This document shows, piece after piece, positions 24,875-51,591 of a stretch of DNA of 64,000 bases. This stretch comes from a bacterium (lineage in GTDB: Bacteria > JAAXHH01): assembly GCA_963665755.1 (NCBI GenBank), contig OY762445.1, positions 3,686,590 through 3,750,589 of the forward strand. The letters run 5' to 3'. A model generated the notes under the pieces. The model saw only the letters and a list, made by a program, of their open reading frames with translations, did no database searches and was not told the origin of the DNA. The position numbers were made by a program, and so were the translations under genes. How positions within the stretch are numbered: the first letter of the stretch is position 1; every line of letters starts with the position of its first letter.

Positions 24875-24876
24875 TC

Positions 24877-26010: not shown

Positions 26011-26016
26011 GATTGC

Positions 26017-32543: not shown

Positions 32544-32777
32544 TTCGAGACGACTCCCAAATCCCGGCGTGCTTACTTGTAACGTAGGCTTGGAACGCCG
32601 AGTACACGGACGAGTTCGGGAAATGGTGAGCCGGTTTTGCCATCCGAAAACAGAATTATATTGGCAACGGCTGTCGAATTGCTGATGACGTACAGACCAT
32701 GACTCACGGACCGGGCAGAGGTGGAAGGTTGTCCAACCTTACAAATGGTTGACCTGTTTCGGCGGCCCACCTAGCCT

Positions 32778-33610
32778 TCATGGCGAGTACATTCGCGAAG
32801 TCGAGCCGACGTAACAGTATTTCATGGAAATCCCGTCCATACAGATGACGCTCTTGCCCCTCCCGAAGGCGGTGAGCCCGTCAGGGGAGAACCCGGTGTA
32901 GCTCAACAGTAGACCGCGAGACCAACTCGCCTTGTCCTGTACCTTGGCGTTAAAGGAACGAAGCGTCGTAGCATCGACCAAGTCGTTAGTCCATCCAGCT
33001 TCGAGCAGATAGATATCGCCCCCCGACACGAAACTGCCGTCAATCTGCTCGCCCACCAGGCGAAAGGAAGGTCGTGCAGACAGCCCGTAGGCATCAAACA
33101 TATCCTTCAGGAACTTTTCGAATGCATAGCCGCGAGGTTGCGGCTCCAGTTTGGACAATTGCAACAAGCGATGCGCAAGATCCGAAGCGACTGTTGCATC
33201 CATTTGTGGTATTTCTGACTGTGCCGAATCGCTATAGGACCTCTGACGTGTTTGGCGACGTGCCCCCCCAGTCGTTCAATGATTCTAAAGAAGGCAACTC
33301 GTACCTTATCATCCAGTTCCGGATAGTCGTGAGTCACGCTGCTGACTTCACGGTATTCCCAAAGTGCGTTCAGCGTATCAAGAACCGTTTTTCGGTTCGC
33401 GTGTCGTAAGAAATAGCGCAGGCGCTTCGCCTTGCTCTCGCCGTCAACTGCCCAACGGGGATGGTAGACATCGACTCGTAGTTCTTCTTGGAAGAACTCG
33501 GCGAAGGTCCGATTCGAGAAATCTAGTACGTAGCCGTCTTCCATACCGAAAACCTTGTCGAGGATCGGGATGTCCACCGTTCGGATCTTCGGATTCGATG
33601 TTCCGTTCAT
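32778..33610 (-). pseudogene. Restriction-endonuclease-like (Mrr-cat/PD-(D/E)xK) domain protein with an apparent frameshift
   Basis: Two overlapping minus-strand ORFs, 33107-33610 and 32778-33203, lie in different frames. The downstream ORF carries an Mrr_cat-like core (GYAFEKFLKDMF...IDGSFVSGGDIYLLEAGW). Confidence 0.5.
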
Positions 33611-33612
33611 AA

Positions 33613-34479
33613 CTACCTCAAGCTAAGTCTTTTTAGCCAAGCGTCAACCTGCCCGAAGGCGTCCTGCTGCCACTGATCCGCTGTGCGATCGTCAAGTAGG
33701 TGGGAACCTTCCACGAACCTCCTGACGCTCGTCGGTCCGAAGTCTTCGATGTCCCGGAACTTCCCGGAGATCAATTGGTAGCCTTTTCGGGCTGATGCTA
33801 CGTCGAGGAGTGGCCGGGTTGCTTCGACGAGCGCGTCGATCCCATTGGGGTAATTTCGGATTGAATAGTAGATGTCGTAGGCGTCTTTGGGTTTATGACG
33901 CTGGTCTATGGCATAGCCTTTCATGGCCAGGAGGGCCGGAATCGACGCAACGGCAATACGAACGAGATTCCTTCCCCCACCGGGCATGTCTCCGTCGATG
34001 GCGACCGTCTGATTGTACATGAGCGCGAGCTCAGCCCCGTCGGCACGCTGGACGGCAAATTCGCTGAGAAGCGGTGGCCTGTTCTTTGCGGTCTGCGCGT
34101 CGCGTGGCATCAGGAAGTCTACTACGACATCTATGTCGGGTCCGCCATCCCTGGCAGGTACAGTACGCACGAGTTGAAAGCGCGACATATTCTCCTGTTG
34201 ATGGTAACCATGTACTTGGAGGGCTTCGACAAGTCGGACATATTCGCCATCGCCCAAAGCGGACGGATCGAGATCAAGATCCACGTCTCCTGTGCCGATA
34301 TGGGGCATGTCGGATTCGCTCAGCAACAGCCAGGGAACGGCGCCGCCGATTATCGCAAACTTGCCTTCGAAGCTGGCGAGGACCTGGCCGATCTCGATTA
34401 TCACCGATCTGACTGCTTGTGTCGTCCGGTCATCGTAGTCGACGGCGGATTGAGGTTCTCTCATAACCATGGAAAGCAC
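33613..34479 (-). CDS. Nucleotidyltransferase, AbiEii/AbiGii toxin-family-like
   Basis: IIGGAVPWLL ... GTGDVDLDLD matches the GGxA...DxDxD signature of a nucleotidyltransferase fold. Its 19-nt overlap with the upstream gene indicates operon coupling. Confidence 0.55.
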   Translation of the reverse strand: MLSMVMREPQSAVDYDDRTTQAVRSVIIEIGQVLASFEGKFAIIGGAVPWLLLSESDMPHIGTGDVDLDLDPSALGDGEYVRLVEALQVHGYHQQENMSRFQLVRTVPARDGGPDIDVVVDFLMPRDAQTAKNRPPLLSEFAVQRADGAELALMYNQTVAIDGDMPGGGRNLVRIAVASIPALLAMKGYAIDQRHKPKDAYDIYYSIRNYPNGIDALVEATRPLLDVASARKGYQLISGKFRDIEDFGPTSVRRFVEGSHLLDDRTADQWQQDAFGQVDAWLKRLSLR

Positions 34480-35612
34480 TTCGAGGCCAGATGGTTGGCG
34501 GCCTCACGGTCCCGATCGTTGCCTTTCCAAAGATCGAGGTATGTGATAATCGGGCTGGTGCAGAAAACGCCCGGCACCGGCTGAACGGCATCTTCGAATA
34601 GACTCTCATCTTTTGGGATGTACAGGATGACATTTGCTCCCTTTGCAGCATGAGTCAGTTCCAATGTCTCCTCCAGCATATGAGCGCCAGGTTCGTCGGT
34701 GTACAAGCTGTGTGTGCCACCCCGGGAGAAGGGAGCAAACCATTGAGCGGCCGAATTTGACGCGAGAATTGCACGCGGATGCTGTGGTTCCGGATTCAGC
34801 TTACCCGACAACTGTTTGATGAGTTGTTCACCGTGAAAAAGCGTGTATCTGCTGATGCGGTGATCGGTCAGCTGCCGGTAGTTCTCTCGCCATGTCCTTA
34901 ATAGCGCATCCGGCTGGACAAGGTTGATGCCGTTGTCCCGTTTTTTAATCCATTCCCGTTCGAGCAGGGCTTTGCGAACGTTGCTCGCATGGCCGAGGCT
35001 CACATTGGCCGCTACCGCCAGGTCGGTCACGCGCCACACCCGATTGGGATCGCGAAGGAGAGCACGCAGGATTGCTGCAGCCTTCGGAGTGAAGATCGAC
35101 CGCAGTGCGCGGGTTTCGGATTTGGGCCTGTCTGCGACCTCTCGATCGATATAGACATTGCTGAAGGCAAGGTGAGCGTTCCCGAACAGATCCAGGTAAG
35201 CGATATCATGATCTGAACAGATCGACCGAGACTCGGGAGACAGATAGGAACTCACAAGCATGGGGATCATACGTCGATCGGGATCCCCTTGACTGTACTG
35301 ATGAGCATGCGCCAAGTAGCCCTTGAGTTGATAGACTGCAGACCGAACAAAAAGGGGAGCACCGTTCGACTTTACTTCGATGATAAGTGCATAGGTGTCA
35401 TCGCCGTGCTCGAACTCGATCCATCCGTCGATGATGTGGTCGCTTCCGAGTCGCCGATCATTGCGAACCGAACTGACCACCAAGCTTGGCACTTGGTCTA
35501 GCAGGGTGCGGACCGCGTTCACGGCCTCGGTTTCCAGATTGTTTACTGATAAAGGACTTTTCATCATATGTTGAAAATAACTATTATAGCGAAATAAGTC
35601 AAGCAATTTCAC
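34461..35612 (-). CDS. AbiEi-like partner protein: N-terminal PD-(D/E)xK-like nuclease domain plus central winged HTH
   Basis: IIDGWIEFEHGDDTYALIIEVKSNG looks like a nuclease core. VWRVTDLAVAANVSLGHASNVRKALLEREWI is a winged HTH. It lies upstream of the nucleotidyltransferase gene and overlaps it. Confidence 0.45.
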   Translation of the reverse strand: MKLLDLFRYNSYFQHMMKSPLSVNNLETEAVNAVRTLLDQVPSLVVSSVRNDRRLGSDHIIDGWIEFEHGDDTYALIIEVKSNGAPLFVRSAVYQLKGYLAHAHQYSQGDPDRRMIPMLVSSYLSPESRSICSDHDIAYLDLFGNAHLAFSNVYIDREVADRPKSETRALRSIFTPKAAAILRALLRDPNRVWRVTDLAVAANVSLGHASNVRKALLEREWIKKRDNGINLVQPDALLRTWRENYRQLTDHRISRYTLFHGEQLIKQLSGKLNPEPQHPRAILASNSAAQWFAPFSRGGTHSLYTDEPGAHMLEETLELTHAAKGANVILYIPKDESLFEDAVQPVPGVFCTSPIITYLDLWKGNDRDREAANHLASKCFPWL

Positions 35613-36186
35613 TTATACGATGTTTTCATCGGAAACTGATGACGCCTTTAATAGTGAAAAATGCCGATAGGCTATCCCAAACCGCCGTCTTTCATGACAT
35701 GATGACCCCGGTCTTGTATAGGATGATTACGATTTGGCCAGTACTTGATCGTTCAAGTCTCTACGGCTACCATACAAAAACTCGATTCAGCTTCAGCCAG
35801 CGGGTCGCCGCCCGAACGCGCTTGCTTTCGATTTACCAGTGTCCGCTTTCGGGCCTTGTCCAACGAGACCAAGGCAACGTTACCGAGTTCGATCTAACGC
35901 TTGGTGCCTCCAAAGGCACGCTGTTAAATCCAGCTTGGGATTCCGGTAGGTTGGACAACAGGTACGAGCCGTTGCTGGCGGCATACCCTCTGGGCGGGAC
36001 CGAGCGGGCCTAGTCGAGATGGTGGCCTTTGGGCTTGGTTTTCCGGGAGATGAGAGGTAGATTCTTGCCACAAACCTTTACAAGTTTTATAGGGTATGGT
36101 AGTGAATTACAGGGTATGTTGTAATCTGCTTAAGGTATTTGGAAATACCAATTCAGTTATGATTCTTGTACTTACAGGAGGTTGTG

Positions 36187-37733: not shown

Positions 37734-39547
37734 TATCTGTTCTCCTCGATGATCGCTGCCAGGTCCTCCCTGATGGACTGGACCGGAACGCGGTTGATCA
37801 CCATTTCGCCTTCTTCATTCCTGTGCTGGGTAATGTTGATGCTTCCGAATTCCTCGTCCTTGTCCTCGTAGTCCTCGCGGAAGTGGGCGCCCCGGCTCTC
37901 CTTCCTTTCCAGCGCGGCGCGTGCCACCGCCTCCGACACGATCATCAGGAACTTGAGATCCAGCGCGGTATGCCAGCCGGGATTGTATTCCCGGTTTCCG
38001 ATGACAGAGACTTTCTGCGCCCGCTGCCTGAGTTCGTCGATCACTTCCAGCGCCTTCTGCATGTCCCCTTCGTTTCGAACGATGCCGACGAGCTCCTGCA
38101 TCCGGTCCTGCAGCTCGTACTGGATGTCGAAGGGATTCTCGCCGCTGTTCTCCCGGTCGAAGGGCGCCAGGGTCTCACCGACGGCCGCTTCGACCTGGCC
38201 GTCGTCGATGGTCCCGTTCCCGTTCTCACGGGCGAACTCCGCCGCGTACCGGCCGGCGCGCTGTCCGAACACCAGCAGGTCGGAAAGGGAATTGCCACCC
38301 AGCCGATTGGCGCCGTGCAGGCCCGCGGCGCATTCCCCGGCGGCGAATAGACCGGGCACGGTAGACATCTGCGTGTCGGCGTCCACGAGCACGCCGCCCA
38401 TCACGTAATGGGTGGTGGGGCCTACTTCCATGGCCTCCTTCGTGATGTCGATGTCGGCCAGTTGCTTGAACTGGTGATACATGCTGGGCAGCTTGCGCTT
38501 GATGTGTTCTTCGGCGTTCGGGAGTTTTTCCTTGATCCAGGCGATGTCGAGGTATACGCCGTCGTGGGGCGACCCGCGGCCTTCCCGGATCTCCCGGACG
38601 ATGCACCGCGCCACGTGGTCACGCGTCAGCAGTTCCGGCGGACGACGGGCCTCCTTGTCTCCCTGGGTGTATATCCAGCCCTCTTCGGGACTGTCCGCAG
38701 TCTGGTTCTTGTACAGGTCCGGGATATCGTCGAACATGAACCGATTGCCTTCGCTGTTCGTCAGGATGCCGCCCTCGCCGCGGACGCCTTCCGTGACCAG
38801 GATGCCCCGCACGCTCGGCGGCCAGACCATGCCCGTCGGGTGGAACTGGACGAATTCCATGTCCAGCAGCTCGGCCCCGGCTTCGTAGGCCAGTCCGTGG
38901 CCGTCTCCCGTGTATTCCCAGCTGTTGCTCGTGATCTTGAAGGCCCGGCCGATGCCGCCCGTTGCCAGGACGACCGCCTTGGCGCGAAAGACCCGAAAAC
39001 GTCCCCGTTCCCGGTCGTACCCGAAAGCGCCGACGACCCGGTCTCCGTCCTTCAGCAGGGCCACGATGGCGTGTTCCATGTACACTTCCATACCCTGGTG
39101 GATCCCATAATCCTGCAGGGTCCGTATCATCTCCAGCCCGGTCCGGTCGCCCACGTGGGCCAGCCGGGGATACTTGTGCCCCCCGAAGTTGCGCTGCAGT
39201 ATGCGGCCGTCGTCCGTTCGGTCGAACAGGGCGCCCCAGGCTTCCAGCTCCCGCACGCGGTCCGGCGCTTCCCTGGCGTGCAGCTCGGCCATGCGCCAGT
39301 TGCTCAGGTACTGGCCACCCCGCATCGTGTCGGCGAAATGCACGCTCCAGCCGTCCCGGTCGTCCACGTTGGCCAGCGCCGCCGCGACCCCGCCTTCGGC
39401 CATGACCGTATGGGCTTTGCCCAGCAGGGATTTGCACACCAGACCTACCGAAACTCCGGCCGACGAGGCCTCGATCGCCGCCCGGAGCCCTGCCCCGCCG
39501 GCGCCGATCACCAGTACGTCGTGTTCATGATGCTGGTATTCCGCCAT
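37733..39547 (-). CDS. sdhA: Succinate dehydrogenase flavoprotein subunit
   Basis: FAD-binding GAGGAG, HTVMAEGG and HYVMGG motifs. Start at MAEYQHH. The listed 851-aa ORF is an in-frame upstream extension that overlaps sdhC in a different frame. Confidence 0.92.
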   Translation of the reverse strand: MAEYQHHEHDVLVIGAGGAGLRAAIEASSAGVSVGLVCKSLLGKAHTVMAEGGVAAALANVDDRDGWSVHFADTMRGGQYLSNWRMAELHAREAPDRVRELEAWGALFDRTDDGRILQRNFGGHKYPRLAHVGDRTGLEMIRTLQDYGIHQGMEVYMEHAIVALLKDGDRVVGAFGYDRERGRFRVFRAKAVVLATGGIGRAFKITSNSWEYTGDGHGLAYEAGAELLDMEFVQFHPTGMVWPPSVRGILVTEGVRGEGGILTNSEGNRFMFDDIPDLYKNQTADSPEEGWIYTQGDKEARRPPELLTRDHVARCIVREIREGRGSPHDGVYLDIAWIKEKLPNAEEHIKRKLPSMYHQFKQLADIDITKEAMEVGPTTHYVMGGVLVDADTQMSTVPGLFAAGECAAGLHGANRLGGNSLSDLLVFGQRAGRYAAEFARENGNGTIDDGQVEAAVGETLAPFDRENSGENPFDIQYELQDRMQELVGIVRNEGDMQKALEVIDELRQRAQKVSVIGNREYNPGWHTALDLKFLMIVSEAVARAALERKESRGAHFREDYEDKDEEFGSINITQHRNEEGEMVINRVPVQSIREDLAAIIEENR

Positions 39548-40350
39548 TAAAGAATTCTCCAATCCGTCCACACGCCCATGGCCACGAGGCGTACGTATAT
39601 ATCCGAGAAACCGACCCATACCAGGCTGAGCCAGGCCCAGGTCATGTGTCCCCGGTTCAAGCACGAGACGCAGTTGTAACCCGCATGCCGGACGGGCGCT
39701 TTGGACAGATGATCCAGGTACCCGCCGATCAGGTGCCGCAGTGAGTGGCAGCCGAATTGGTAGCCGCCCAGCAGGACGACGTTCAAGGTCAACACAATGG
39801 TTCCGACGCCTATGCCGAATGTAGCCTCGCCCGTCGCCGCATCCGTGAACCACAAGGCCTTCCATGCGTCCTGGACCAGGAAGATCCAGATGATGAACAC
39901 CAGGTAAAGGAAGTATCGGTGAATGTTCTGCATGATCAACGGGAAGGATTGCTCCCCGCGGTACTTCTTCCTCGGTTCGGAAACGCTGCAGGACGGAGGA
40001 TCGGCCCAGAAAGCCTTGTAGTAGGCGCCCCGGTAGTAATAGCAGGTAATCCGGAATCCAGCCGGCGCCCACAGGATCAGGAAGGCAGGTGAAAACGGTA
40101 GCAAGGCTGGCCACCATGCGGGTTTGGGACCGAACAGGGCATGGGACGAACTGCCGAAAATCTCGGGAGAATAAAAGGGCGACAGGTAAGGGCCCCAGGC
40201 GTAGAACTCGCCCTGGAAGGCCGCCCAGGTTGAGTAGACGACAAAGGCGGAGAATACGCCGAAGGTCAGTAATTGCTGCGCCCACCATGCGTCTCTGCGT
40301 TGCGTCTGACCAAAACCGCTCGTCTTCAGCGAAACACCGGTTGTCGACAT
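39547..40350 (-). CDS. sdhC: Succinate dehydrogenase cytochrome b subunit (five transmembrane helices, b558-like)
   Basis: 267 aa membrane protein with conserved His residues, directly upstream of sdhA with a TAATG stop/start overlap. Confidence 0.75.
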   Translation of the reverse strand: MSTTGVSLKTSGFGQTQRRDAWWAQQLLTFGVFSAFVVYSTWAAFQGEFYAWGPYLSPFYSPEIFGSSSHALFGPKPAWWPALLPFSPAFLILWAPAGFRITCYYYRGAYYKAFWADPPSCSVSEPRKKYRGEQSFPLIMQNIHRYFLYLVFIIWIFLVQDAWKALWFTDAATGEATFGIGVGTIVLTLNVVLLGGYQFGCHSLRHLIGGYLDHLSKAPVRHAGYNCVSCLNRGHMTWAWLSLVWVGFSDIYVRLVAMGVWTDWRIL

Positions 40351-40584
40351 AGGCTATCCTCTTGAATCCAGCGCACCGAACAACTGAATTTCACGGACAA
40401 AACACATTAGCGCAAAATAGACCGGCGAAGGCCGCAATGCAATAGAAAAATGATCTCGCTTCCGCCATGGTTTCGGCATGCTGCCCATCCGCAACAACGG
40501 GATAAAACAATGGCCGGATCGGCCCGTCGGGCGATATATTGAAACCCTGTTTCGTTACCCGACGCCGGAACGCCCGGTTCTGTC

Positions 40585-42576
40585 ATGCCGGGCAGACAAG
40601 GAAGCCGATCTCACCCGATGCCAGCCGACTCGTCACAGGACGCACGCTCCCCGCGCAACCCGACCGGCATCACGCCCCGTGTACTGATCCTGGGGGGCGT
40701 TCTGGCCGTATTCATCGCTATCTGGACGCCCCACACCAATTACGTGATGCATGGCCCGAGGCTCACCCTGAGCCATATCTCTATCGCGGCCCTGGTTTCC
40801 TTTCTCATGGTGATCTTCTGTATGCAGATCCCCCTTCGCAGGTGGCGGCCCGCCCAGGCGTTCTCCGCTAGCGAACTGGCCGTGCTGTTCGTCTTCTGTC
40901 TCGTCTCGTCGACGATTCCGGGCAAAGCCTTCGTGGACTACTTTATCGGAATCCTCGCCTCTCCTTACTATTACGTTACGCCGGAGAACCGGTGGGCGGA
41001 TACCTTCTTTCCCCATCTGCCCGGATGGCTGGTCGTCCGGGACGACCTGGGAGCCGCGACGGGGTTCTACGAAGGCGCCGGCCAGAGCATCATCCTGTGG
41101 GTCGAATGGATCGTTCCCCTGTTCTGGTGGATGTGCATGCTGGCGGCGCTGTTCGTGGTCATGGCCTGCATTTCGGTGATCTTTCGCAAGCAGTGGGTCG
41201 AGCACGAGCGGTTGTCCTTTCCCGCGGTCCAGATACCCTCGATGCTCATCAGGGAGACGACCCGGGGCGGACTGGTACCGGGATTAGTGACGAACCGGTA
41301 CTTCCAGGTGGGATTCGGGGTCACCTTCGCCCTGCTGGCGTGGAACTGCCTCGCCTATTTCGGCATATTCCCCGCCATTCCCGTTGGCGCCGCTTTTCGG
41401 ACGGAGATTCAACTGGCGCCTTCCGTTCCCCCGACCCAGGTGCAGTTCAACCTCTTCATGATGTGCTTCGCCTATTTCGCCGACTTGAAGGTGTTGTTCA
41501 GCATCTGGTTTTTCCACCTGCTCGCCCTGCTGGAGATCGGTCTGCTCAATCAATTGGGCGTATCGGCGTCCGGCGTGGCGGGCGGCTCGCAGTTCATCGT
41601 AAAGACGGAGCACTTCGGCGGGTTCTGGGTATTCGTCCTGTGGGGCATATGGATCGGCAGAAACCACCTGAAGGCGGTCTGGCGCAAGGCCCTGGGAGGC
41701 GCGCCGGAGGTCGACGACTCCATGGAACTGCTGTCCTATCGCACGGCCGCGGGGGGACTGGCCGCCGGCCTGTGCTATTTGCTTTTCTGGCTTAACAGCA
41801 TGGGCATGTCGGTCGACGTGGCCGTCCTCTTCCTCCTGATCACGCTTGCGCTCTACGTCGGCGTCACCCGCATCGTCGCCGAGACGGGGCTCGTTTTCCT
41901 CGATCTGCCGGTCAACTCGAACGAAATGACGGTGGCCGTCATCGGTTCGAGCAACCTGTCGCCTTCGAATCTCACGTCCCTCGGACTGACCCACGCCATC
42001 TCCCACAACCACCGGGGCATCGGCCTGTCTTCGCTGATTCACGGCGTGAAGGCCTCCGAAGGCTTCGCCCGGTCGAGGAAAGGACTGTTCGCCGCGGTGT
42101 GCGTTCTGCTTGCGCTCACGTTCATCGTCACGAACGGCTACACCATATACGCCGGGGCGACCGGCACCGGGGCCCATGATTTCGCGCCGCTTCGAGCCGA
42201 TAACTTCTACGACCAGCTGGCCACCTGGTTCAACAATCCCTACACCCTGTCCTACGAGGAAATCTATTTCCTGCTCCTGGGCGCGGTCATTACCTGCGGT
42301 CTCCTGTTCATGCAGTACCATTTCGCCGGCTGGCCCTTCCATCCCATCGGCTACATCGTGGCCTACGCCGACATCATCAACTTCGAAATCACGTCGATCT
42401 TCATGATCTGGCTGATCAAGGGGCTGCTGCTGAGGCTGGGCGGGTTCGACATGTACCGGAGGATGCAGCCTGCCGTGATCGGCGTGCTGCTGGGCTACGC
42501 GGCGGGCGTGACCCTGTCTCTTGCCGTCGATGTCATCTGGTTTCCCGGCCAGGGGCACAACGTGCACAACTGGTAG
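40585..42576 (+). CDS. Uncharacterized polytopic membrane protein, about 650 aa (paralog A)
   Basis: At least 12 hydrophobic helices. Shared motifs with the paralog at 42752-44683: SPENxW, LFWWM, FRKQWVEHERLSFP and LEIGLLN. The start may be at the MPADSS Met (40618). Confidence 0.6.
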   Translation: MPGRQGSRSHPMPADSSQDARSPRNPTGITPRVLILGGVLAVFIAIWTPHTNYVMHGPRLTLSHISIAALVSFLMVIFCMQIPLRRWRPAQAFSASELAVLFVFCLVSSTIPGKAFVDYFIGILASPYYYVTPENRWADTFFPHLPGWLVVRDDLGAATGFYEGAGQSIILWVEWIVPLFWWMCMLAALFVVMACISVIFRKQWVEHERLSFPAVQIPSMLIRETTRGGLVPGLVTNRYFQVGFGVTFALLAWNCLAYFGIFPAIPVGAAFRTEIQLAPSVPPTQVQFNLFMMCFAYFADLKVLFSIWFFHLLALLEIGLLNQLGVSASGVAGGSQFIVKTEHFGGFWVFVLWGIWIGRNHLKAVWRKALGGAPEVDDSMELLSYRTAAGGLAAGLCYLLFWLNSMGMSVDVAVLFLLITLALYVGVTRIVAETGLVFLDLPVNSNEMTVAVIGSSNLSPSNLTSLGLTHAISHNHRGIGLSSLIHGVKASEGFARSRKGLFAAVCVLLALTFIVTNGYTIYAGATGTGAHDFAPLRADNFYDQLATWFNNPYTLSYEEIYFLLLGAVITCGLLFMQYHFAGWPFHPIGYIVAYADIINFEITSIFMIWLIKGLLLRLGGFDMYRRMQPAVIGVLLGYAAGVTLSLAVDVIWFPGQGHNVHNW

Positions 42577-42672
42577 CTTGCCCGGGTGTCGGCGCCCGCC
42601 GGAATATCCCGGTGAAGCGCGGGGTTGTCTGTCGAAGCTACGGCGATCACCCGGGATCAAAGAGGGAACCGC

Positions 42673-42726
42673 GGCCAGGGCGATCGGGGCGGCCAGGGCG
42701 ATCGGGGCGGCCAGGGCGATCGGGGC
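42673..42726. repeat. Perfect tandem repeat, 3 x 18 bp (GGCCAGGGCGATCGGGGC)
   Basis: Lies in the 175-bp spacer between the convergent paralogous membrane-protein genes. Confidence 0.9.
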
Positions 42727-42751
42727 GGACTGGTGTACAGGGCGGTCCCGG

Positions 42752-44683
42752 CTAGAAAATCTCGGCGATATGGGGGGTGTCGGGGAAATACACTGTATCG
42801 ACGACGTAGGCGGCCAGGACCCCGACGGCATAACCCACGAGAATCCCCAGGAACAGGGGCTGGGCCTTCCGGTACAACCCGACGCCGCCGACACGGAGGA
42901 GGATGACCTGCACGATCCATGCGACGAAGAGGGTGAAGACGACCCCCCTGATGGGTCCCGATGCGCCGATGGCGAATCCGATGGGATTGAGCGGCCACCA
43001 GTAAAAGAGGTACCTGCCCAGGGCCAGCAGCGTGCTGATGGCCATACCCGCCGCGAGGAACAGGATTTCGAGGGTGGAGATCTGCGTGGCGTTCTTCATC
43101 CACTTCACCACCAGGTCGAAGAACAGGTTCCCCGTGTTGCGCAGGTTGATGTGGAGGTTGTCCGCCCCTTCCGCGTAACCGGAGTAGACGACGTATCCCG
43201 TCGAGATCGCCGTCCCGGCAATAAAAGCGAGACATACCAGCAGGAAGAACCGTCCCCGGTTTTCCCCGAGATAGTCGCGCCACCAGGCGACGTGGGAAAG
43301 ACCGACCATGGTGAAGGTGCGCCAGTTCCGCGCGAAGGCGTTGGTCAGTCCGAGACCGGTCAGCGTCGACCCCGAAAGGCTGGCCGACCCCACCATCCCC
43401 ACCGTGAAGGCGTGGGCGTTGATGGGCAGGTCGAGGTTGATCAGGCCCGCTTCGGCGAGGACGCGGGCAATACCGAAATAGAATACCAGGAGGAAGAAAA
43501 GAAAGAGCAGCGCGACGGGGATGGAGAAACCGATGGCGCTGAGCCAGGCGGTCATGAAGAGCACGCCCAGGACCAGGCCGACGACCGCCGTGCGGTAGGA
43601 GAACAGTTCATCTTCGTCCCGCAGGTCGCTCTCCCTCCCGAGGGACTTCCGCAGGACGTTGCGGATGTGTTTCCGGGCCATCCAGCCGCCGATCAGGGCA
43701 AACATGATCAGTCCGCCGCAGAATTGGATGGATACCAGCCCGCCGGGAACGATCGTCTCGGCGGGTGATACCACGCCGATGCGGTTCAGCAGGCCGATTT
43801 CAAGGATGCCCAGGACCTGGAACAACCAGACGCTGAAGAGGATCTCGACGTTGACGAAAAAGGCGAAGCACAGGACGTAGGGCACGAGGCGTATGGCGAT
43901 GGGCGGGAAGGCCGGGTCGATGACCACGTTGAATACCGGGCCGGGCAGGGGGATGTGGGGCAGCACGCCCCAGAATCCGATGATGTTCCAGGTCATGATG
44001 GCCAGGCTGGCCGCGAAACCGACCTGGAAAAGCCGGTTTCCGAAGAGGGACGGCCATCTCCCGGGCGTGTTCCCGTCGGTTTCGACCAGGCGCAGGATGA
44101 CCTCGCCCATGGGGAAACGGAGCCGCTCGTGTTCCACCCACTGTTTCCGGAAGATCACGACCAGGCAGGCGCCGATGAAGAGCAGCGTGCCCAGGGCCGA
44201 CATCCACCAGAAGAGCGGTATGACCCAGTCCTGCCACGGAATTGGCAGTCCGGAAGGCCGCCCCTCGAAGAAATCCGAGACTTGCCCCTTGTCGTTGGGG
44301 ATGACCGCCCATTCCGGCAAGTACGCGAAAAAGTGGGCCTCCCACTGGTTCTCCGGACTCGCGAAGTAATGGGGCGCGGTGATTACGCTGATGAGATATC
44401 GGACCATGCCCCAGTCCGGCACCATGGCCGCGATCAGTCCCATGGCGAAAATGACCAGGAGTTCCGGCCTCGTCAGTGCGGCGTCCCGGTATATTAAACG
44501 GATCAGTGTGTTCGGCAGCAGGACCAGGAAAAGGAAGGGAATGACCAGACTAAGCGGCATCTGGGGGAAGGTCAGATAGTTGTAGTTCAGCTGTGCTGAG
44601 GCGTATTGTCCCCAGAAAGCGACGCAGCACGCGAAGGCCAGGCCCAGGACGGCCGTTTTGAGGGATATGGGTTTCACGGTCAT
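42752..44683 (-). CDS. Uncharacterized polytopic membrane protein, about 640 aa (paralog B)
   Basis: Same motif set as paralog A (FRKQWVEHERLRFP, LFWWM, SPENQW, LEIGLLNR). Start placed at the MTVKP Met to avoid overlapping the upstream SDR gene. Confidence 0.6.
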   Translation of the reverse strand: MTVKPISLKTAVLGLAFACCVAFWGQYASAQLNYNYLTFPQMPLSLVIPFLFLVLLPNTLIRLIYRDAALTRPELLVIFAMGLIAAMVPDWGMVRYLISVITAPHYFASPENQWEAHFFAYLPEWAVIPNDKGQVSDFFEGRPSGLPIPWQDWVIPLFWWMSALGTLLFIGACLVVIFRKQWVEHERLRFPMGEVILRLVETDGNTPGRWPSLFGNRLFQVGFAASLAIMTWNIIGFWGVLPHIPLPGPVFNVVIDPAFPPIAIRLVPYVLCFAFFVNVEILFSVWLFQVLGILEIGLLNRIGVVSPAETIVPGGLVSIQFCGGLIMFALIGGWMARKHIRNVLRKSLGRESDLRDEDELFSYRTAVVGLVLGVLFMTAWLSAIGFSIPVALLFLFFLLVFYFGIARVLAEAGLINLDLPINAHAFTVGMVGSASLSGSTLTGLGLTNAFARNWRTFTMVGLSHVAWWRDYLGENRGRFFLLVCLAFIAGTAISTGYVVYSGYAEGADNLHINLRNTGNLFFDLVVKWMKNATQISTLEILFLAAGMAISTLLALGRYLFYWWPLNPIGFAIGASGPIRGVVFTLFVAWIVQVILLRVGGVGLYRKAQPLFLGILVGYAVGVLAAYVVDTVYFPDTPHIAEIF

Positions 44684-44711
44684 GCCTGGTCTAGCCCGGT
44701 CAAACCGGAAG

Positions 44712-45491
44712 TCATTCCTGGATGGAGGCTGTGCCGCGCTTGAGCCAGAAGCCCCCGTCGACACGCAGGACTTCCCCGGTGATGTAGTCCGCCGCGTCGG
44801 AACACAGGAAGGTGGCCGCCTTGCCCAGGTCCTCGATCGTGCCCATCCGGCCCCAGGGCAGCCGCCTGCCGCCTTCCTCCAGTTCCTGCTCCGTCGAGTA
44901 CTGGCGTTCGCCCGGCGTGTCGGTCCATCCCGGTTCGATCACGTTCACGCGGATGCGGTGCTCCAGCAGTTCCAGGGCGATGATTGCGGCCATGTGGTTC
45001 ATGCCGGCCTTGGCGGACGAATAGGACAGGGAGGTGGGGAAGGGGAGAAAGGACATGACCGAGCTGATGAAGAGGATACTGCCGCCCTTCTTCGCGTCCA
45101 CCATCTTCCGGGCGCCCGACTGCGCGACATGGAAAGCGCCGAAGAGGCTGACTTCGTAAGTTTTCTTCATTTCGTCCACGTCCATTACGAGAAAAGGCTC
45201 CCTCGTGGAATAGTAGGCGTTGGCCACCACGATATCGGGTCCGCCGAGTTCCTTCGCCGTCTGATCCACCATGGCGTCCACGGCGGACCGGTCGGAGGCG
45301 TCCGTGCCGACCAGGATCGCCCGCCGGCCCATCGCCCTGATTTCCTCGGCGACGGCCTCGCCGTCGTCCCGGTGGCGGAAGTAGTTGACGGTGACGTCCG
45401 CCCCGGCCCGGGCCATTTGCAGGGCGATGCCTTTGCCGATGCCCCGGGACGAACCGCTGATCAGCGCTGTCTTGCCCTTCAAGTCGATCAT
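44712..45491 (-). CDS. SDR-family oxidoreductase (3-oxoacyl-ACP reductase-like)
   Basis: SGSSRGIG Rossmann motif and a YSSAK catalytic motif. Confidence 0.85.
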   Translation of the reverse strand: MIDLKGKTALISGSSRGIGKGIALQMARAGADVTVNYFRHRDDGEAVAEEIRAMGRRAILVGTDASDRSAVDAMVDQTAKELGGPDIVVANAYYSTREPFLVMDVDEMKKTYEVSLFGAFHVAQSGARKMVDAKKGGSILFISSVMSFLPFPTSLSYSSAKAGMNHMAAIIALELLEHRIRVNVIEPGWTDTPGERQYSTEQELEEGGRRLPWGRMGTIEDLGKAATFLCSDAADYITGEVLRVDGGFWLKRGTASIQE

Positions 45492-45666
45492 GGTTCCCTC
45501 GAATCATAATACGTGGTGACCGGTGCGAATGACCCGAGCGCCCGCGCGATCGGGGGTGCCTGCGAGATCGAGATCGGCCGCACGATCGGGAGCGGTTGAA
45601 CCTTCAAGCGTGCCCGCGCGATCAAGCGTGACAGCGCGATCGGGATCGACTACTCTGGGATCGGTT

Positions 45667-46428
45667 TCAAAGCCCCATGGCATTCATGTTGCGGTAGCTG
45701 ACGGCGATACTGTCGAAGGGGTCGCCGGCGCAGGTGTCCTGTTCGACGACGTACCACTGGGACCCCGCGGCCTCGCAGGCAGCGACGATGCCGGACCAGT
45801 TCATGTTGCCCTCGCCGATCTCGGCCATCACCTGTTCCCGTCCCGATACGCCCAGGTCCTTGAAATGGATGACCGGGCACCGGTCCCGTACCCGGCCGAT
45901 CCAGTGTATGGGGTCGCCGCCGCCGTACTGGATCCAGTAGGTGTCGATTTCAAAGCACAGGGCGGGGTCGCTCTCTTCCACGAGGATGGCCAGCCCGGTT
46001 CGATCGCCCACCCGCACGAGTTCGGTGTGGTGGTTGTGGTAGCTGAAGGACATGCCCGCTTCCTTCAACCCGAGGGCCACGGCAGACGCGTCCACCGCGA
46101 ACCGCGAGAAACCGTCCGGATCGTCCCAGTAGGATCTCGGCATGGACCCGACGGCGATATGCTCACATCCCCAGAGGCGGTGTTCGGCGGCGACTTCATC
46201 CGGTTTTTCCTGCAGCCGTTCGAAGGGTACGTGCGTGGCGCAGACTTGCAGGCCGGCGTCCCGGATCATGGCGCCGAGTTCCGCGGGATCGACGGGACCC
46301 AGGGCCGATAACTGTATGTGGTCGTAGCCGATGGACTTGACTCTCTTCAGAGTGTCCGCGATATCGGCCGGCGTCTGCACGAAGTCGCGTAAAGTATAGA
46401 GTGTGACGGCGATCTTGCTGTCTGGCAT
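45667..46428 (-). CDS. Sugar phosphate isomerase/epimerase (xylose isomerase-like TIM barrel)
   Basis: AP-endonuclease-2/xylose-isomerase-like fold. Start placed at the internal Met with an upstream GGAGAG. Confidence 0.75.
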   Translation of the reverse strand: MPDSKIAVTLYTLRDFVQTPADIADTLKRVKSIGYDHIQLSALGPVDPAELGAMIRDAGLQVCATHVPFERLQEKPDEVAAEHRLWGCEHIAVGSMPRSYWDDPDGFSRFAVDASAVALGLKEAGMSFSYHNHHTELVRVGDRTGLAILVEESDPALCFEIDTYWIQYGGGDPIHWIGRVRDRCPVIHFKDLGVSGREQVMAEIGEGNMNWSGIVAACEAAGSQWYVVEQDTCAGDPFDSIAVSYRNMNAMGL

Positions 46429-46439
46429 CCATCTCTCCT

Positions 46440-47837
46440 TCATTTTTCCAGAGGTTCAAAAGCAGGCGAATCATCCTCCCATGCGCCGCCGACCGGACGA
46501 AGTTGTCCGAGTCCTGTAACGGGCCGCAGCCGCCCGTCACGTTCCGGATCGACGTATCGTTCGAACCAGCCTTCCAATTCGCCACGGAGCGATCTGCATC
46601 GGCCGGCATATCCGGCATCGTCCGCGAGGTTGGCCCGTTCGTCCGGGTCATTCTCCAGGTCGTACAGTTCGTTCGGGCCCTCGGGATACCGGTGCACGTA
46701 CTTCCACGATTCGGTGCGGATCATGCGCGTGCCGCCGTATTCGTCGAAAATCACCACATGGTCCCGGCCGGCATCGTCCCGGCCCGTCCAGGCGTCCAGG
46801 GTGTTCCGCCCCGGCAGGTTGCGGTCCCAGGGTACGGGCAGGTCCAGGTACGACAGCAACGTGGGCATGAAGTCGTAAGCGCTGATCATGGCCCCTTGCA
46901 CGAATCCTTCGGGCAGGCGTCCTGGCTGGCTGACCAGGGCGGGTACCCGGATGGAGTTCTCGTACATGTTCAACGGGTTCGTCCCGTTTCCCTTCCCCCA
47001 GAATCCGTGGTGTCCCAGGCTGAAACCGTTGTCGCTCAGGAAGATAACCAGGGTGTTTTCGCGGATGCCGTGCCGGTCGAGCCGGTCAAGCAGGCGGCCT
47101 ACGTCGAGGTCCATGGCCGTGACGGCCGCGAAGTAGCCCTTCAGGCTTTCGCGGTCGCCCATGCATTCGCGGGTCAGGCCGCCGGCCCAGGGGTGGATGG
47201 GTTCCTGCGGACAGGATGCGAAGGGGCAGTCGTCGTAGGAGTCGACGATGTCCTGCGGATGGCCCGTCCACGGGCTGTGCGGTGCGGTGTAATGGACACC
47301 GAGGTAGAACGGTTCTTCCTGGTTGGCGTGGCGGTCGATAAAGGCGAGGGCGTCGTCGGTAATGACGTTCGTGACGTATCCCGGTTCGTTGACCGGGACG
47401 CCGTCGCGCACCATGGGGGCGTTGTTGTAGGGCCCGCCGCCGAACTGGTGGGCGAACCAGTGGGAAAACCCATGCTGGGACAGGGTGCTGTTGCCCAGGT
47501 GCCACTTGCCGCTGAGGCCGCATCGCCACCCGTGGGCCGCGAGCACATCGGTGTACGCCGTTTCTCCTTCGAGGTATGAAGCCGCGTCCTCCCCGACGTT
47601 GCCACCCCGGATCCAGTCGTGCACGCCGTGCTGGGAGGCGATTCGGCCGGTCAGCAGCGTCGCGCGGCTGGGCGAGCAGACGGGCGTGGCCACGAAGAAC
47701 CGGTCGAAGCGCACCCCGGTCTGCGCGATCCGGTCGATGTTCGGCGTGCGTATTTCGGAATTGCCGTAGCAGCCCGCCGCCCAGACGCCCTGGTCGTCGG
47801 TAAGGATGCAAAGCACGTTCGGTCGGTATGAAGCCAT
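46440..47837 (-). CDS. Sulfatase (formylglycine-dependent arylsulfatase-like)
   Basis: CSPSRATLLTGR contains CxPxR; GKWHLG; IFLSDNG. Confidence 0.88.
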   Translation of the reverse strand: MASYRPNVLCILTDDQGVWAAGCYGNSEIRTPNIDRIAQTGVRFDRFFVATPVCSPSRATLLTGRIASQHGVHDWIRGGNVGEDAASYLEGETAYTDVLAAHGWRCGLSGKWHLGNSTLSQHGFSHWFAHQFGGGPYNNAPMVRDGVPVNEPGYVTNVITDDALAFIDRHANQEEPFYLGVHYTAPHSPWTGHPQDIVDSYDDCPFASCPQEPIHPWAGGLTRECMGDRESLKGYFAAVTAMDLDVGRLLDRLDRHGIRENTLVIFLSDNGFSLGHHGFWGKGNGTNPLNMYENSIRVPALVSQPGRLPEGFVQGAMISAYDFMPTLLSYLDLPVPWDRNLPGRNTLDAWTGRDDAGRDHVVIFDEYGGTRMIRTESWKYVHRYPEGPNELYDLENDPDERANLADDAGYAGRCRSLRGELEGWFERYVDPERDGRLRPVTGLGQLRPVGGAWEDDSPAFEPLEK

Positions 47838-48129
47838 GGCCTGTCCTCGGGTCGAGAGGTTGTCCTGCGGGCGTTTCATCAAGTATGGGAAAGCGTCGAA
47901 CGAATTGTCAAATTAGCGTCCCACAAGCGGATTGTCACGCAGATTCTACCCGCCCTCCCGGTCCAATTGGCGTTGCCATGCGTCCGGCCCATCCCGTATA
48001 TTGTCAACCGCGACACCGGTGGTACGGCTGGTGTGACGCGGCCCTGTGCATCGGGACGAGTGAGTCTGACCCGTTAAGAACAGAATGGTATACGGACCCG
48101 TGTCGGCGGGCACGGAGGGGATTGGCGTT

Positions 48130-49161
48130 ATGATACGAACAGGTATCGTGGGCTACGGACTGGCGGGTCGTTCATTCCATGCCTACCTGGTATCGCGGAC
48201 CGATGGGTTGAAACTGACGGCCGTCGCCAGCCGGGACCCGGAACGGAGGGCACAGGCGGAACGGGACTGGTCCGTGGATACCTATGAGACCTTGACCGGT
48301 CTCCTGTCGGATGACGATATCCAGCTCGTCATCCTGGCAACGCCCCACCACACCCACGCATCCCTGGCCATCGAAGCCATGGAGGCGGGAAGACACGTGG
48401 TCGTCGACAAGGTCATGTGCATGTCGGCCGCCGAAGCCGAGGGAATGATCGCGGTCAGCCAGCGTCGCGGGGTTGTGCTGAGCGTCTTCCACAACCGTCG
48501 CTGGGACTGGGGTTATCTGACCGTGCGCAAGGCGGTGGAAGACGGCCTGCTGGGCGATCCCTTCCTGATCGAACGGTCCGTGCATCGGTTCCGGGCTTCC
48601 CGGGGCTGGCGGACAAACCGGGCGGAGAGCGGCGGCCTGCTCTACGATTGGGGCGCCCACCTCATCGACCAGGGGTTGCAGCTGCTGGCCGCCCTTCCCG
48701 TCGCGGTCCATTGCAAGGGGCACAAGTACCGGTGGGAAGGAGACATCGAGGATCACGTCACCTGTACCCTGTATTTCGAGAACGGCGCCGAGTATCGCAT
48801 TGAAATCAGCAATTTGTCCCGTATAGCCAAACCGCACTGGTACGTACTGGGCACACGGGGCTCCCTCGTCAAGACAGGCCTCGACCCCCAGGAAGACCGG
48901 ATGAAGAAGGGCGAGATCGAGGCAGCGGAGGAGGCCCCCGAAGACCGCGTCAGGGTTGCCACGGAACGGGACGGCGAGGCCCTGGAAATGACCCTCGACC
49001 CGGTAAGGGGCAGTTGGGTGGATTACTACCGGAATATCGCGGCTGTATTGGACCGTAGCGCGGAACTCGCCGTAAAGCCCGGTGAGATGCTGGATCTGAT
49101 GAGGGTGCTGGACGCCGCCACGGAATCCCTGGAAACCGGGCGGGTGGTATCGACGAAATGA
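48130..49161 (+). CDS. Gfo/Idh/MocA family oxidoreductase
   Basis: GIVGYGLAG Rossmann motif; MocA C-terminal domain. Confidence 0.82.
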   Translation: MIRTGIVGYGLAGRSFHAYLVSRTDGLKLTAVASRDPERRAQAERDWSVDTYETLTGLLSDDDIQLVILATPHHTHASLAIEAMEAGRHVVVDKVMCMSAAEAEGMIAVSQRRGVVLSVFHNRRWDWGYLTVRKAVEDGLLGDPFLIERSVHRFRASRGWRTNRAESGGLLYDWGAHLIDQGLQLLAALPVAVHCKGHKYRWEGDIEDHVTCTLYFENGAEYRIEISNLSRIAKPHWYVLGTRGSLVKTGLDPQEDRMKKGEIEAAEEAPEDRVRVATERDGEALEMTLDPVRGSWVDYYRNIAAVLDRSAELAVKPGEMLDLMRVLDAATESLETGRVVSTK

Positions 49162-50228
49162 GGATCGAACGGAACATGGAACCCAGGCGAATGGTCATTC
49201 TCACGGAGGGGATGCTGGGCACGTTCTCATCCAAGACCGCCGCGTCGCTGATTCGCTACAAGCCCGATGAAACCGTGGCGGTGCTCGACAGCGTGCACGC
49301 AGGCAGGAAAGTGGAAGACCTGCTCGAGGTCGGACAGGGCATCCCGGTCGTGTCGACATTGAAGGAAGCGCTGGCGTTCGGACCGACCTCGCTGGTCATC
49401 GGCATCGCCACGCCGGGCGGCGTACTTCCCGCAGCGTGGCGGGCGGTCATCCGCGAAGCGATCGAGCATGGGCTAGAGGTGGTGAACGGGCTTCATACCT
49501 TTCTCGGCGAGGACGAGGAATTCGCCCGCCGCGCCGAACAGAAGGGCGTTCGGCTGTGGGACGTGCGAAAGCCGCCGGACGATCTGGATGTGGGGCGTCA
49601 CGCGGTCCACGGCCTCCCGAATCTTCGCGTGCTGACCGTAGGCGCCGATTCGAGCATCGGCAAGAAGATCGCCGCGATCGAGATCGGCCGTGCGGCCTGC
49701 GAGGCAGGATGGGATGCCGAGTTCGTAGCTACAGGGCAGACCGGTATCATGATCGCGGGATCGGGCATCGCGGTGGACACCGTGGCGGCGGACTACATAT
49801 CGGGTGCCGTGGAACGGCTCGTCCTGGAACGAAAGGGCCGGGAACTGCTGGTCATCGAAGGCCAGGGCACGATCCTGCATCCATCCTATTCCGGCGTATC
49901 GCTCGGCCTGTTGCACGGCGCGGCGCCGCAGGCCCTGGTGCTTTGCCACCAGCCCGGCCGGGACGTGATGCGCAATCTGCCCGTGGCCGTGCCGTCCTAC
50001 AAAGAGATGATTCACGTCCACGAGACGATCGCCCGGCCGCTGTTTCCCTGCCGGATCGCTGCGGTTTCGCTCAACTGCTTCGGTATGTCCATGGACGAGG
50101 CCAGGCGGGAAGTGGACCGGGTCGCGCGGGAGACCGGACTTCCGACGACGGACTGTGTGAAATTCGGATGCGCTCCGATTCTGGAAGCCCTTGAGCCCCT
50201 GAAGGTTCCGTCGACGAAACCTGACTGA
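49158..50228 (+). CDS. DUF1611-domain protein
   Basis: DUF1611-like N-terminal Rossmann-type region. ATGA overlap with the upstream gene. Confidence 0.55.
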   Translation: MRIERNMEPRRMVILTEGMLGTFSSKTAASLIRYKPDETVAVLDSVHAGRKVEDLLEVGQGIPVVSTLKEALAFGPTSLVIGIATPGGVLPAAWRAVIREAIEHGLEVVNGLHTFLGEDEEFARRAEQKGVRLWDVRKPPDDLDVGRHAVHGLPNLRVLTVGADSSIGKKIAAIEIGRAACEAGWDAEFVATGQTGIMIAGSGIAVDTVAADYISGAVERLVLERKGRELLVIEGQGTILHPSYSGVSLGLLHGAAPQALVLCHQPGRDVMRNLPVAVPSYKEMIHVHETIARPLFPCRIAAVSLNCFGMSMDEARREVDRVARETGLPTTDCVKFGCAPILEALEPLKVPSTKPD

Positions 50229-50247
50229 TGAAGCCGGAGTGCGTAAG

Positions 50248-51591
50248 ATGAACATCCGAATATTGACCGCCGAAGAGGCCGTGACGGGCATCCTGAAGCG
50301 GCGGCCGCTGAACGACGGGACGTCGGCTGCGGGAATCGAAGAACGGAACAGGGAACTGTTCGGCAAGGCCCTGACGGCGGAACAGGCCGTAGCGCAAATA
50401 ATCGACGATGTTCGAAAGAGCGGGGACGATTCGGTAAGGCACTATGCCCGGTTGCTGGATGGGCAAGCCCCGTGTGCCTTCGAAGTTCCTCGGAGCGAGA
50501 TCGACGAGGCGGCGGCATCGCTGCCTTCCGGTTTGCGTGATGCACTGGAAACGGCGGCCGAGCGCATCCGGTCGTTCCACGAAAAGCAACCGTTCGAGTC
50601 CTGGACGCACTGGGACGAAGAGGGCGGTACCGGGCAGATCGTGCGGCCGCTGGACCGGGTCGGCGTCTACGTACCCGGTGGCGGGGCCGCCTATCCATCC
50701 TCACTGCTGATGGCCGTGATTCCCGCCCGCGCGGCCGGAGTCCGGGAGGTCGTCGTGGCCACGCCGCCCGGAAGGGACGGAGCGGTGCCGCCCGCGGTTC
50801 TGGCCGCTGCTTCCGTGGCGGGTGCCGACGCGGTTTACCGTATCGGCGGCCCACAGGCGATTGCGGCAATGGCCTATGGTACCGGGACCATTTCGCCCGT
50901 CGACAAGATCGTGGGTCCGGGTAATGTCTTCGTGACCCTGGCCAAGCGCCAGGTATACGGGATCGTGGACATCGACCAGTTGGCCGGTCCCACCGAAACC
51001 CTGCTGATCGCCGACGAAACGGCCAGTGCGGAACTTGCGGCGGCCGATCTGCTGGCGCAGGCCGAACACGATATCATGGCGAGCGCCATACTGATCACGC
51101 CGTCGTCCGGGCTGGCCCTGGCGGTGCAAAACGCCTTGGGTGAACAGCTGGCCGAACTGGACCGGGCGGACACAATCCGATCCTCCCTGCAACATAACGG
51201 GGGGATCGTGCTGGTCTCGAGCCTCGAAGAAGCGGTAGAACTGGCAAACGCCTACGCACCGGAGCACCTGTGCCTGCTCGTCGCGGATCCATGGACGCTT
51301 GTGGACAGCATCCGGCACGCCGGAGGGATCTTCGTGGGAGAACACGCATCGGAGGCCCTGGGCGACTACGTCACCGGCCCCAGCCATATCATGCCCACCG
51401 GGGGCAGCGCCCGGTTCCATTCTCCCTTGAGCGTGCGCGATTTCCTGAAGATCACCAGCCTTTTCGCGGTCAACGAATTGGCGGAGAAACGGTTGGGACC
51501 TACCGCAATCAGGCTGGCGGAAGCAGAAGGCCTTTCGGCCCACGCCATGGCCATTCGAAGAAGGCTCTCAAGCGACCGGGACGGGGACTGA
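50248..51591 (+). CDS. hisD: Histidinol dehydrogenase
   Basis: Full-length HisD-like sequence, with motifs GPGNVFV and AEHD. Confidence 0.9.
   Translation: MNIRILTAEEAVTGILKRRPLNDGTSAAGIEERNRELFGKALTAEQAVAQIIDDVRKSGDDSVRHYARLLDGQAPCAFEVPRSEIDEAAASLPSGLRDALETAAERIRSFHEKQPFESWTHWDEEGGTGQIVRPLDRVGVYVPGGGAAYPSSLLMAVIPARAAGVREVVVATPPGRDGAVPPAVLAAASVAGADAVYRIGGPQAIAAMAYGTGTISPVDKIVGPGNVFVTLAKRQVYGIVDIDQLAGPTETLLIADETASAELAAADLLAQAEHDIMASAILITPSSGLALAVQNALGEQLAELDRADTIRSSLQHNGGIVLVSSLEEAVELANAYAPEHLCLLVADPWTLVDSIRHAGGIFVGEHASEALGDYVTGPSHIMPTGGSARFHSPLSVRDFLKITSLFAVNELAEKRLGPTAIRLAEAEGLSAHAMAIRRRLSSDRDGD

Follow-up and report, generated by a model that had tools for sequence, protein, structure and literature searches.

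The question raised by this locus is what is encoded by two genes, here called A and B, that converge on each other in a bacterial stretch of 64,000 nucleotides (contig OY762445.1 of assembly GCA_963665755.1, positions 3,686,590 to 3,750,589, referred to below as the window). Both encode membrane proteins of the Pfam DUF6785 plus DUF6784 family, to which Pfam assigns no function. We are highly confident in assigning A and B to the OPT superfamily as secondary transporters, and we consider it probable that the DUF6785/DUF6784 family as a whole is a deep and hitherto unrecognised prokaryotic branch of the OPT/Yellow-Stripe superfamily, with A and B as importers. The pair is made up as follows (lengths in amino acids, aa).

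40618 to 42576, plus strand: gene A, a DUF6785+DUF6784 protein of 652 aa (open reading frame, translation and homolog lengths).
42577 to 42751, unstranded: spacer of 175 bp between the convergent stop codons of A and B (open reading frame coordinates).
42752 to 44683, minus strand: gene B, a 643-aa paralog of A (open reading frame, translation and BLASTP against A).

The initial annotation had described convergent open reading frames (ORFs) with a 175-bp spacer, and both ORFs are present as it described. That of A extends from 40585 to 42576 on the plus strand and would give 663 aa if read from its first ATG at 40585; homologs at 97-98% identity have 652 aa, so that the start is most likely the ATG at 40618. 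The ORF of B extends from 42752 to 44764 on the minus strand; it gives 670 aa if read from a GTG, and 643 aa if the ATG at 44683 is taken as the start, as in the initial annotation. The GTG start at 44764 would run 53 nt into the adjoining SDR gene, and B as read from ATG 44683 matches the 643-aa database protein P0055 with 100% identity. The one feature found in the spacer is an inverted repeat of 8 nt whose loop measures 59 nt; there is no terminator-like site in the promoter/terminator scan and no Rfam match. The source organism belongs to the sponge-associated Gemmatimonadota and has several paralogs of the family. The closest relatives are metagenome-assembled genomes of sponge-associated Gemmatimonadota, such as APA_bin_41 (98% identity) and bins named for Ircinia and Rhopaloeides.

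On sequence comparison A and B are true full-length paralogs with a similarity far above chance, as BLASTP aligns them over their full length with 36% identity and 56% positives (E = 1e-142), an identity lower than the 40-50% first estimated. The description of them as polytopic membrane proteins of similar length is supported, and members of the family are without experimental characterisation. The duplication had also been thought to be old, and we agree. B is 45-48% identical to proteins of a Latescibacterota clade and 63-65% identical to those of loci L019 and L022, but only 36% to A, while A has 40-44% identity to other proteins, and neither is the nearest relative of the other. They thus represent two old subfamilies side by side and not a local duplication. 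Both copies have indeed been kept, with the A/B pair found in orthologous loci in which the A copy is 70-98% identical to that of the window.

Membership of the family is clear. DUF6785 (PF20581) is followed by DUF6784 (PF20580), in N-to-C order, in both proteins, with scores of 369 bits (E = 4e-110) and 68 bits (E = 7e-19) in A, and of 327 bits (E = 2e-97) and 69 bits (E = 5e-19) in B, the gathering cutoffs being 25 and 26.4 bits respectively. A and B are full-length members, with no sequence difference from the family. An NCBIfam scan of the two gave no match, relatives are labelled 'DUF6785 family protein' by NCBI, and a literature search on DUF6785, DUF6784 and their Pfam accessions found no paper.

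The evidence on function comes in the first place from predicted structure. AlphaFold2 models built from the family alignment have pLDDT 89.0 and pTM 0.89 for A, and pLDDT 91.4 and pTM 0.91 for B, with about 14-16 membrane helices, in keeping with the earlier estimate of at least 12. In Foldseek searches of the PDB the sole significant matches for either model are to 7wst_A and 7wsr_A, both of which are barley Yellow Stripe 1 (HvYS1). The E-values are 4e-8 and 2e-7 respectively for A (TM 0.60-0.70), and 3e-8 and 4e-7 for B (TM 0.62-0.69), with probability 1.00 over about 690 columns, nearly the whole length. Other folds (pyrophosphatases, LeuT/APC, MFS and TRAP) were found only at E >= 0.02 and TM < 0.2, with probability <= 0.23 and TM <= 0.17 for the transporter folds among them, and a profile search of PDB sequences gave nothing meaningful (best E 0.75). 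The initial annotation had recognised no characterised transporter family; this no longer holds, as structure search with both predicted models gives the OPT-family protein HvYS1 alone, and profile comparisons, discussed below, tie the family to OPT.

HvYS1 is described as having an inverted-repeat core and a discontinuous TM2 (PMC9691689). DSSP shows broken helices in the model of A at residues 84-97/106-118 and 434-442/449-462, in equivalent places in the two halves, and these two predicted breaks would fit the discontinuous TM2 and inverted-repeat core. HvYS1 (PDB 7WSR/7WST; YSL clade, OPT PF03169) also resembles A and B in size and helix count, and presumably shares with them an alternating-access, proton-coupled mechanism. 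It differs in having a Cys250-Cys671 disulfide and a cholesterol-stabilised dimer, which are plant features, and the genomic context of A and B is catabolic and not one of metal homeostasis.

It could be asked if A and B are themselves YSL-like importers of metal-chelate (metallophore) complexes, given that the sole solved structural homolog carries an Fe(III)-phytosiderophore complex. We think this very improbable: annotation of the window and of related loci revealed no genes of nicotianamine-synthase-like, opine-metallophore or siderophore type, and several paralogs per genome in catabolic contexts are a poor fit to metal uptake.

We turn next to the conserved motifs. Those common to A and B are FRKQWVEHERL(S/R)FP, LFWWM, (T/S)PENxW...FF..LP.W and LEIGLLN(Q/R). 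All four had been noted before and all are in both proteins, the one correction being that the serine of SPENxW is in B only, as A has TPEN. The first of them is placed as follows.

41182 to 41223, plus strand: family signature motif FRKQWVEHERLSFP of A (residues 189-202), where the long helix 158-196 ends.
44111 to 44152, minus strand: motif FRKQWVEHERLRFP in B, residues 178-191, with the same invariant columns (R179, W182, E186 and P191).

In an alignment of 72 family sequences R190, W193, E197 and P202 of the A motif are invariant and R198 is conserved at >= 90%. Among acidic residues E197, E370 and D638 are invariant, and E86, E123, D367 and E422 are >= 90% conserved. By a positive-inside count the RKQWVEHERL segment would face the cytoplasm and the PENxW loop would be external.

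With regard to a link to OPT at the sequence level, 2 of the 72 relatives match the Pfam OPT model weakly (best E 0.0024), and the hidden Markov model consensus of c1, a divergent clade of the family, passes it with 28.4 bits, the gathering score being 25.8 (E = 9e-7, residues 229-612 aligned to positions 245-590 of the profile). Locus L087 has, two genes downstream of a c1 gene, a gene for a 654-aa protein that passes the OPT model at 29 bits, and homologs of this protein, in Planctomycetota/Brocadiia, are named 'peptide transporter' or 'OPT/YSL family transporter'. An alignment of such OPT-like homologs, seeded by L087:15592-17553, is referred to as A5. The family alignment (A1) against the single L087 sequence gave a probability of only 1.9% in hhalign, and the comparison became informative once the A5 family alignment had been built. 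The DUF6785 family then matched A5 with 86% probability over the N-terminal third. Under relaxed settings 245 family members matched end to end with 93.7% (E = 1.8e-7, 573 columns), clade c2 with 94.7%, and c6, the clade of the window, with 89.8% (E = 1.7e-6); over all relaxed runs the range was 90-95%, E 6e-8 to 2e-6 and 560-583 columns.

In these alignments the (W)VE(H)ERLxFPL of the family falls on SDVERLPFPLAPIA of A5, the A motif aligning with SDVERLPFP of this bacterial OPT branch, and further aligned motifs are LPxW, E-L..I and a C-terminal G..lYr..P. Proteins of the A5 group have about 650 aa, as do A and B, and the A5 gene of L087 is downstream of a giant FtsX-type protein gene, in the slot of a DUF6785 gene elsewhere. 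The group is nevertheless a separate family that fails the DUF6785 model; only some of its members reach the OPT gathering score, and it too is experimentally uncharacterised. Yeast Opt1p/Hgt1p, of the PT clade, is in the same superfamily as A and B by transitive homology, and is eukaryotic. OPT proteins of this type are proton symporters of solutes of a few hundred daltons, such as glutathione, oligopeptides and folates (PMC13642987), and the mechanism of Opt1p itself, rocker switch or elevator, is debated.

As ERLxFP is aligned across the family and A5, the HER motif is best seen as a superfamily signature, common to OPT-like proteins, and not as the catalytic or gating site that had been proposed. 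This bears on whether A and B could be membrane-embedded enzymes (glycosyltransferases, polymerases or similar) with a catalytic HER motif, for which one could cite the invariant charged residues R190 and E197, with R198 close to invariant, in an uncharacterised family. We find that extremely improbable, as there was no match to a GT-C-like glycosyltransferase or polymerase in Pfam, PDB sequence search or Foldseek, no enzyme fold was found and every Foldseek match other than HvYS1 is insignificant, with TM < 0.2, the motif is shared with OPT-like transporters, and there is no cell-envelope biosynthesis context in the window or the annotated loci. A confident profile match to a characterised family, which the initial annotation had said would speak against its view of the proteins as unassigned, has been obtained in spirit, although A and B themselves fail the Pfam OPT model.

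Several points weigh against the OPT assignment. A and B have no match to the Pfam OPT model (PF03169) even at E <= 1, and identity to HvYS1 is just 10-13% for both. Comparison of the N-terminal and C-terminal halves of the family gave no signal of an internal repeat (hhalign, probability 2%). Any placing of motifs and proton-binding residues on HvYS1, with its Asp446/490/494 proton sites and its substrate residues, is tentative. The link as it stands draws on predicted structures, on a consensus sequence that is synthetic and on scores of 86-95% between profiles; no direct high-confidence match was obtained, and the literature search gave no transport, direction or coupling data for any DUF6785/DUF6784 member.

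We suggest that each protein would be an inner-membrane secondary transporter of about 650 aa and about 14-16 helices. By homology to HvYS1 a scaffold domain would cradle a core that binds the substrate and includes helical hairpins and two discontinuous helices, the fold at residue level being a prediction. The (W)VE(H)ERLxFP segment would be a structural, non-catalytic signature, probably at the junction of core helix TM3 and an 'arm' helix. Proton symport is established for HvYS1 and yeast Opt1p (PMC9691689, PMC13642987), and by analogy with these characterised members we infer proton-coupled import by A and B, in which alternating access would be driven by proton symport and the cargo would be an organic solute of a few hundred daltons.

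The opposite direction, in which A and B would mediate export or efflux of a compound such as a metabolite or chelator, is in our view quite improbable. Transport direction is not readable from sequence, three family genes adjoin Na+/H+ antiporter-family genes and several adjoin FtsX/MacB-type genes; against this, the OPT/YSL proteins that have been characterised import their substrates with proton coupling (PMC9691689, PMC13642987), the gene neighbourhoods are of catabolic and not of biosynthetic type, and cytoplasmic sulfatases, of which there is one close to B, need an imported substrate.

The family has other traits typical of transporters, with several paralogs per genome, tandem arrays and varied catabolic neighbourhoods. 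A search of 1.84 billion proteins with a profile of the 72 sequences gave, as representatives of 50%-identity clusters, 7,531 proteins at E <= 1e-3 and 2,755 at E <= 1e-30. A genome scan confirmed at least 593 family loci in Gemmatimonadota, Latescibacterota, Zixibacteria and Planctomycetota, and Poribacteria are among the members of a divergent clade. Genes in the loci were called by a self-trained codon-usage caller, checked against the deposited gene calls of locus L081. Paralogs number at least 3-6 per genome (lower bounds from 80 retained loci), and in 40 of 87 loci there are two or three family copies within 22 kb. Outside the lineage of the window copies follow one another in tandem, with a maximum of three. 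One such array, in Latescibacterota (L048:5928-11971), consists of three directly consecutive DUF6785 genes that are 22 nt apart, adjacent copies being 78% identical, which indicates a recent local amplification. Three proteins of 824-874 aa (P0171, P0210 and P0211) have an insertion of about 200 aa, with no Pfam match, between the DUF6785 and DUF6784 regions.

For the possible substrate of B we have to look at its neighbours, which on the minus strand are in the order sulfatase, TIM barrel, SDR and B.

44712 to 45491, minus strand: SDR oxidoreductase gene (Pfam adh_short_C2, E = 2e-56).
45667 to 46443, minus strand: xylose-isomerase-like TIM-barrel gene (AP_endonuc_2, IolE-like; Pfam E = 2e-9).
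46440 to 47837, minus strand: Cys-type sulfatase gene (Pfam Sulfatase, E = 5e-48).

The initial annotation was right in placing the pair next to an SDR gene and the sdh operon: the stop codon of the SDR gene is 28 nt upstream of the B ATG on the same strand, and sdhC/A/B are upstream of A on the opposite strand. The best NCBIfam matches of the SDR protein are glucose-1-dehydrogenase-like and rhamnose-1-dehydrogenase-like, all below cutoffs. The TIM-barrel protein has a weak similarity to myo-inosose-2 dehydratase, also below cutoff, and its gene overlaps the sulfatase stop codon by 4 nt. The sulfatase has N-terminus MASYRPNVLCILTDDQG, carries CSPSR and is without a signal peptide. A promoter-like site (TTGACA-18-CATACT) is at 47911-47882 on the minus strand, but the counts of promoter- and terminator-like sites in the region are not above shuffled expectation, and an Rfam scan of 40000-48300 for a riboswitch gave no match at E <= 1. 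The order, including SDR before B, is also found in L081, L006, L004 and L005, and in L081 the gaps in the corresponding run of genes are 11, 40 and 78 nt. From the arrangement and its tight spacing, a putative sulfatase/TIM barrel/SDR/B operon appears to begin with the sulfatase gene and to end with B. A is of a different subfamily and stands alone.

A cytoplasmic sulfatase needs an imported substrate, and for this reason we propose that B would import a sulfated organic compound, which would then be desulfated and oxidised inside the cell. The leading guess is a sulfated sugar or glycoside, and the proposal is a tentative one that may well prove wrong. About 19 sulfatases are encoded near family members, most of them likewise with CSPSR and without a signal peptide, and sulfatase genes directly adjoin DUF6785 genes of other subfamilies in L084, L023, L051 and L036.

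The case for such a substrate is weakened by the distribution of these neighbours. The putative operon is kept among close relatives only (B 89-90% identical), and B-like genes at 63-65% identity adjoin MR_MLE and Zn-ADH genes instead. With orthologous loci removed, sulfatase genes were 4.6% of neighbours at rank 1 and 2.6% at rank >= 3 (p 0.21), and none of the GFO, PhyH and MR_MLE families was significantly enriched in the same comparison. A family-wide link to sulfatase, GFO, PhyH or MR_MLE genes, attractive in raw counts, was thus dropped when it failed the enrichment test without orthologous loci; these enzyme families are common in such genomes.

The sole significantly enriched neighbour is a giant membrane protein with PA, M28-peptidase and FtsX domains (5/109 versus 1/389, odds ratio 18.6, p 0.002), which is fused to DUF6785 in the 2,120-aa protein P0203, and same-strand partners of family genes include Peptidase_M32 (3), gamma-glutamyltranspeptidase (2) and Peptidase_M28 (2). 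The giant protein and the M32 and gamma-glutamyltranspeptidase neighbours point to peptides as substrates of other subfamilies. If this were extended to A and B, they would be OPT importers of oligopeptides, glutathione or similar and not of sulfated carbohydrates, which would also accord with homology to OPT and with the NCBI name 'peptide transporter' for the related A5 proteins. We regard that as rather unlikely. These peptidase partners are all absent from the vicinity of A and B, whose neighbours in the window are the sulfatase, the IolE-like TIM barrel, the SDR and a GFO/IDH/MocA oxidoreductase; the peptidase-linked loci are of other subfamilies, with 31-35% identity to A and B; and OPT cargo is already broad, including peptides, glutathione, folates and metal chelates (PMC13642987).

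The giant protein (1,570-1,750 aa, PA/M28-peptidase/MacB_PCD/FtsX) is part of a recurrent module in which its gene comes after a DUF6785 gene and before either a second DUF6785 gene or an OPT-like transporter gene, as in L065:9959-18672, L077, L078, L079 and L087:8001-17556. The OPT-like gene of L087 fills the slot held by a DUF6785 gene in L065 and L077. The module may be a peptide-harvesting uptake system.

There remains the convergent pairing of A and B. Adjacent convergent pairs of family genes are found only in the lineage of the window (the window, L081, L006, L004, L005 and L001), and a functional tie to the sdh operon was rejected, since the adjacency is confined to that lineage and absent at other family loci. 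It has to be considered if A and B could form an obligate heterodimeric transporter, with the pairing reflecting co-function: HvYS1 dimerises through its scaffold domains, and A/B adjacency is kept in six loci of the lineage (A 70-98% identical). Convergent genes are not co-transcribed, however, and elsewhere A-like and B-like genes are single or in tandem with closer paralogs. The loci with the pair are also those of close relatives (B 89-90% identical), in which synteny may simply be inherited, and we judge a heterodimer to be improbable. The convergence of A and B and their adjacency to sdh are lineage-specific synteny and not a demonstrated functional pair.

A broader view would be that the family is a prokaryote-specific OPT branch that turned from peptide or metal-chelate cargo to feeding sulfated or oxidised compounds to cytoplasmic sulfatases and sugar-type oxidoreductases in sponge-associated and marine Gemmatimonadota, Latescibacterota and Poribacteria, with A and B as two specificities or possibly as a heterodimer. 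We consider this version doubtful.

Other features of the window and loci deserve mention. On the sdh side of A there is a 267-aa ORF (39547-40350, minus strand) upstream of sdhA, in the position expected for the membrane anchor/cytochrome b, for which there was no Pfam or NCBIfam match here or in L081; the 851 aa of the 'sdhA' ORF result artefactually from an in-frame ATG further upstream, as the FAD domain starts only at about residue 256. On the other side a putative operon at 48085-51591 (plus strand) diverges from the sulfatase operon. Its products are an oxidoreductase of the GFO/IDH/MocA type, a DUF1611 protein with DgcN-like similarity below cutoff, and a paralog of histidinol dehydrogenase. 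The order is the same in L081, L082 and L083, and the histidinol-dehydrogenase paralog passes the hisD model while being outside any his operon.

In the window at 21734-23269 (plus strand) and in L023, L036, L051 and L084 most sulfatases are without a signal peptide, with the catalytic domain 5-15 residues after the Met and CxPxR present, which implies that these bacteria have unusually many cytoplasmic sulfatases. There are also many paralogs of PhyH type (Fe/2-oxoglutarate dioxygenases), at 24685-25680 and 53511-54260 in the window and at 1287-8392 in L084, where five are found in one 8-kb stretch, with MR_MLE (enolase-superfamily) and luciferase-like genes alongside. This abundance suggests a paralog-rich repertoire for catabolism of organic matter. 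The segment from 26000 to 36000 of the window has a GC content of 0.53-0.56 against about 0.62, and includes two paired type III restriction-modification genes (N6_N4_Mtase, 27734-28771; ResIII helicase, 28782-31322) and an AbiEii/AbiEi toxin-antitoxin pair at 33613-35612. In the orthologous locus L081 the PhyH, cyclase and SDR genes that flank them here adjoin one another directly, and the restriction-modification and AbiE genes thus have the look of defence islands that were inserted.

Pfam had already listed the family as a DUF, and what is added here is its placement in OPT and its expansion in these phyla. An anonymous family thereby becomes a testable transporter family, with HvYS1 and OPT as mechanistic template, in a field in which bacterial OPT-type transporters have been barely studied, and one that is multicopy in the genomes of uncultivated phyla from marine habitats and sponge symbioses. 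The practical gains are modest: genomes of these phyla can be annotated better, and mutagenesis can be directed at a defined set of conserved residues. If the branch does import sulfated or other non-peptide organic matter, this would explain how the cytoplasmic sulfatases of the symbionts reach their substrates, and would widen the known substrate range of the OPT superfamily.

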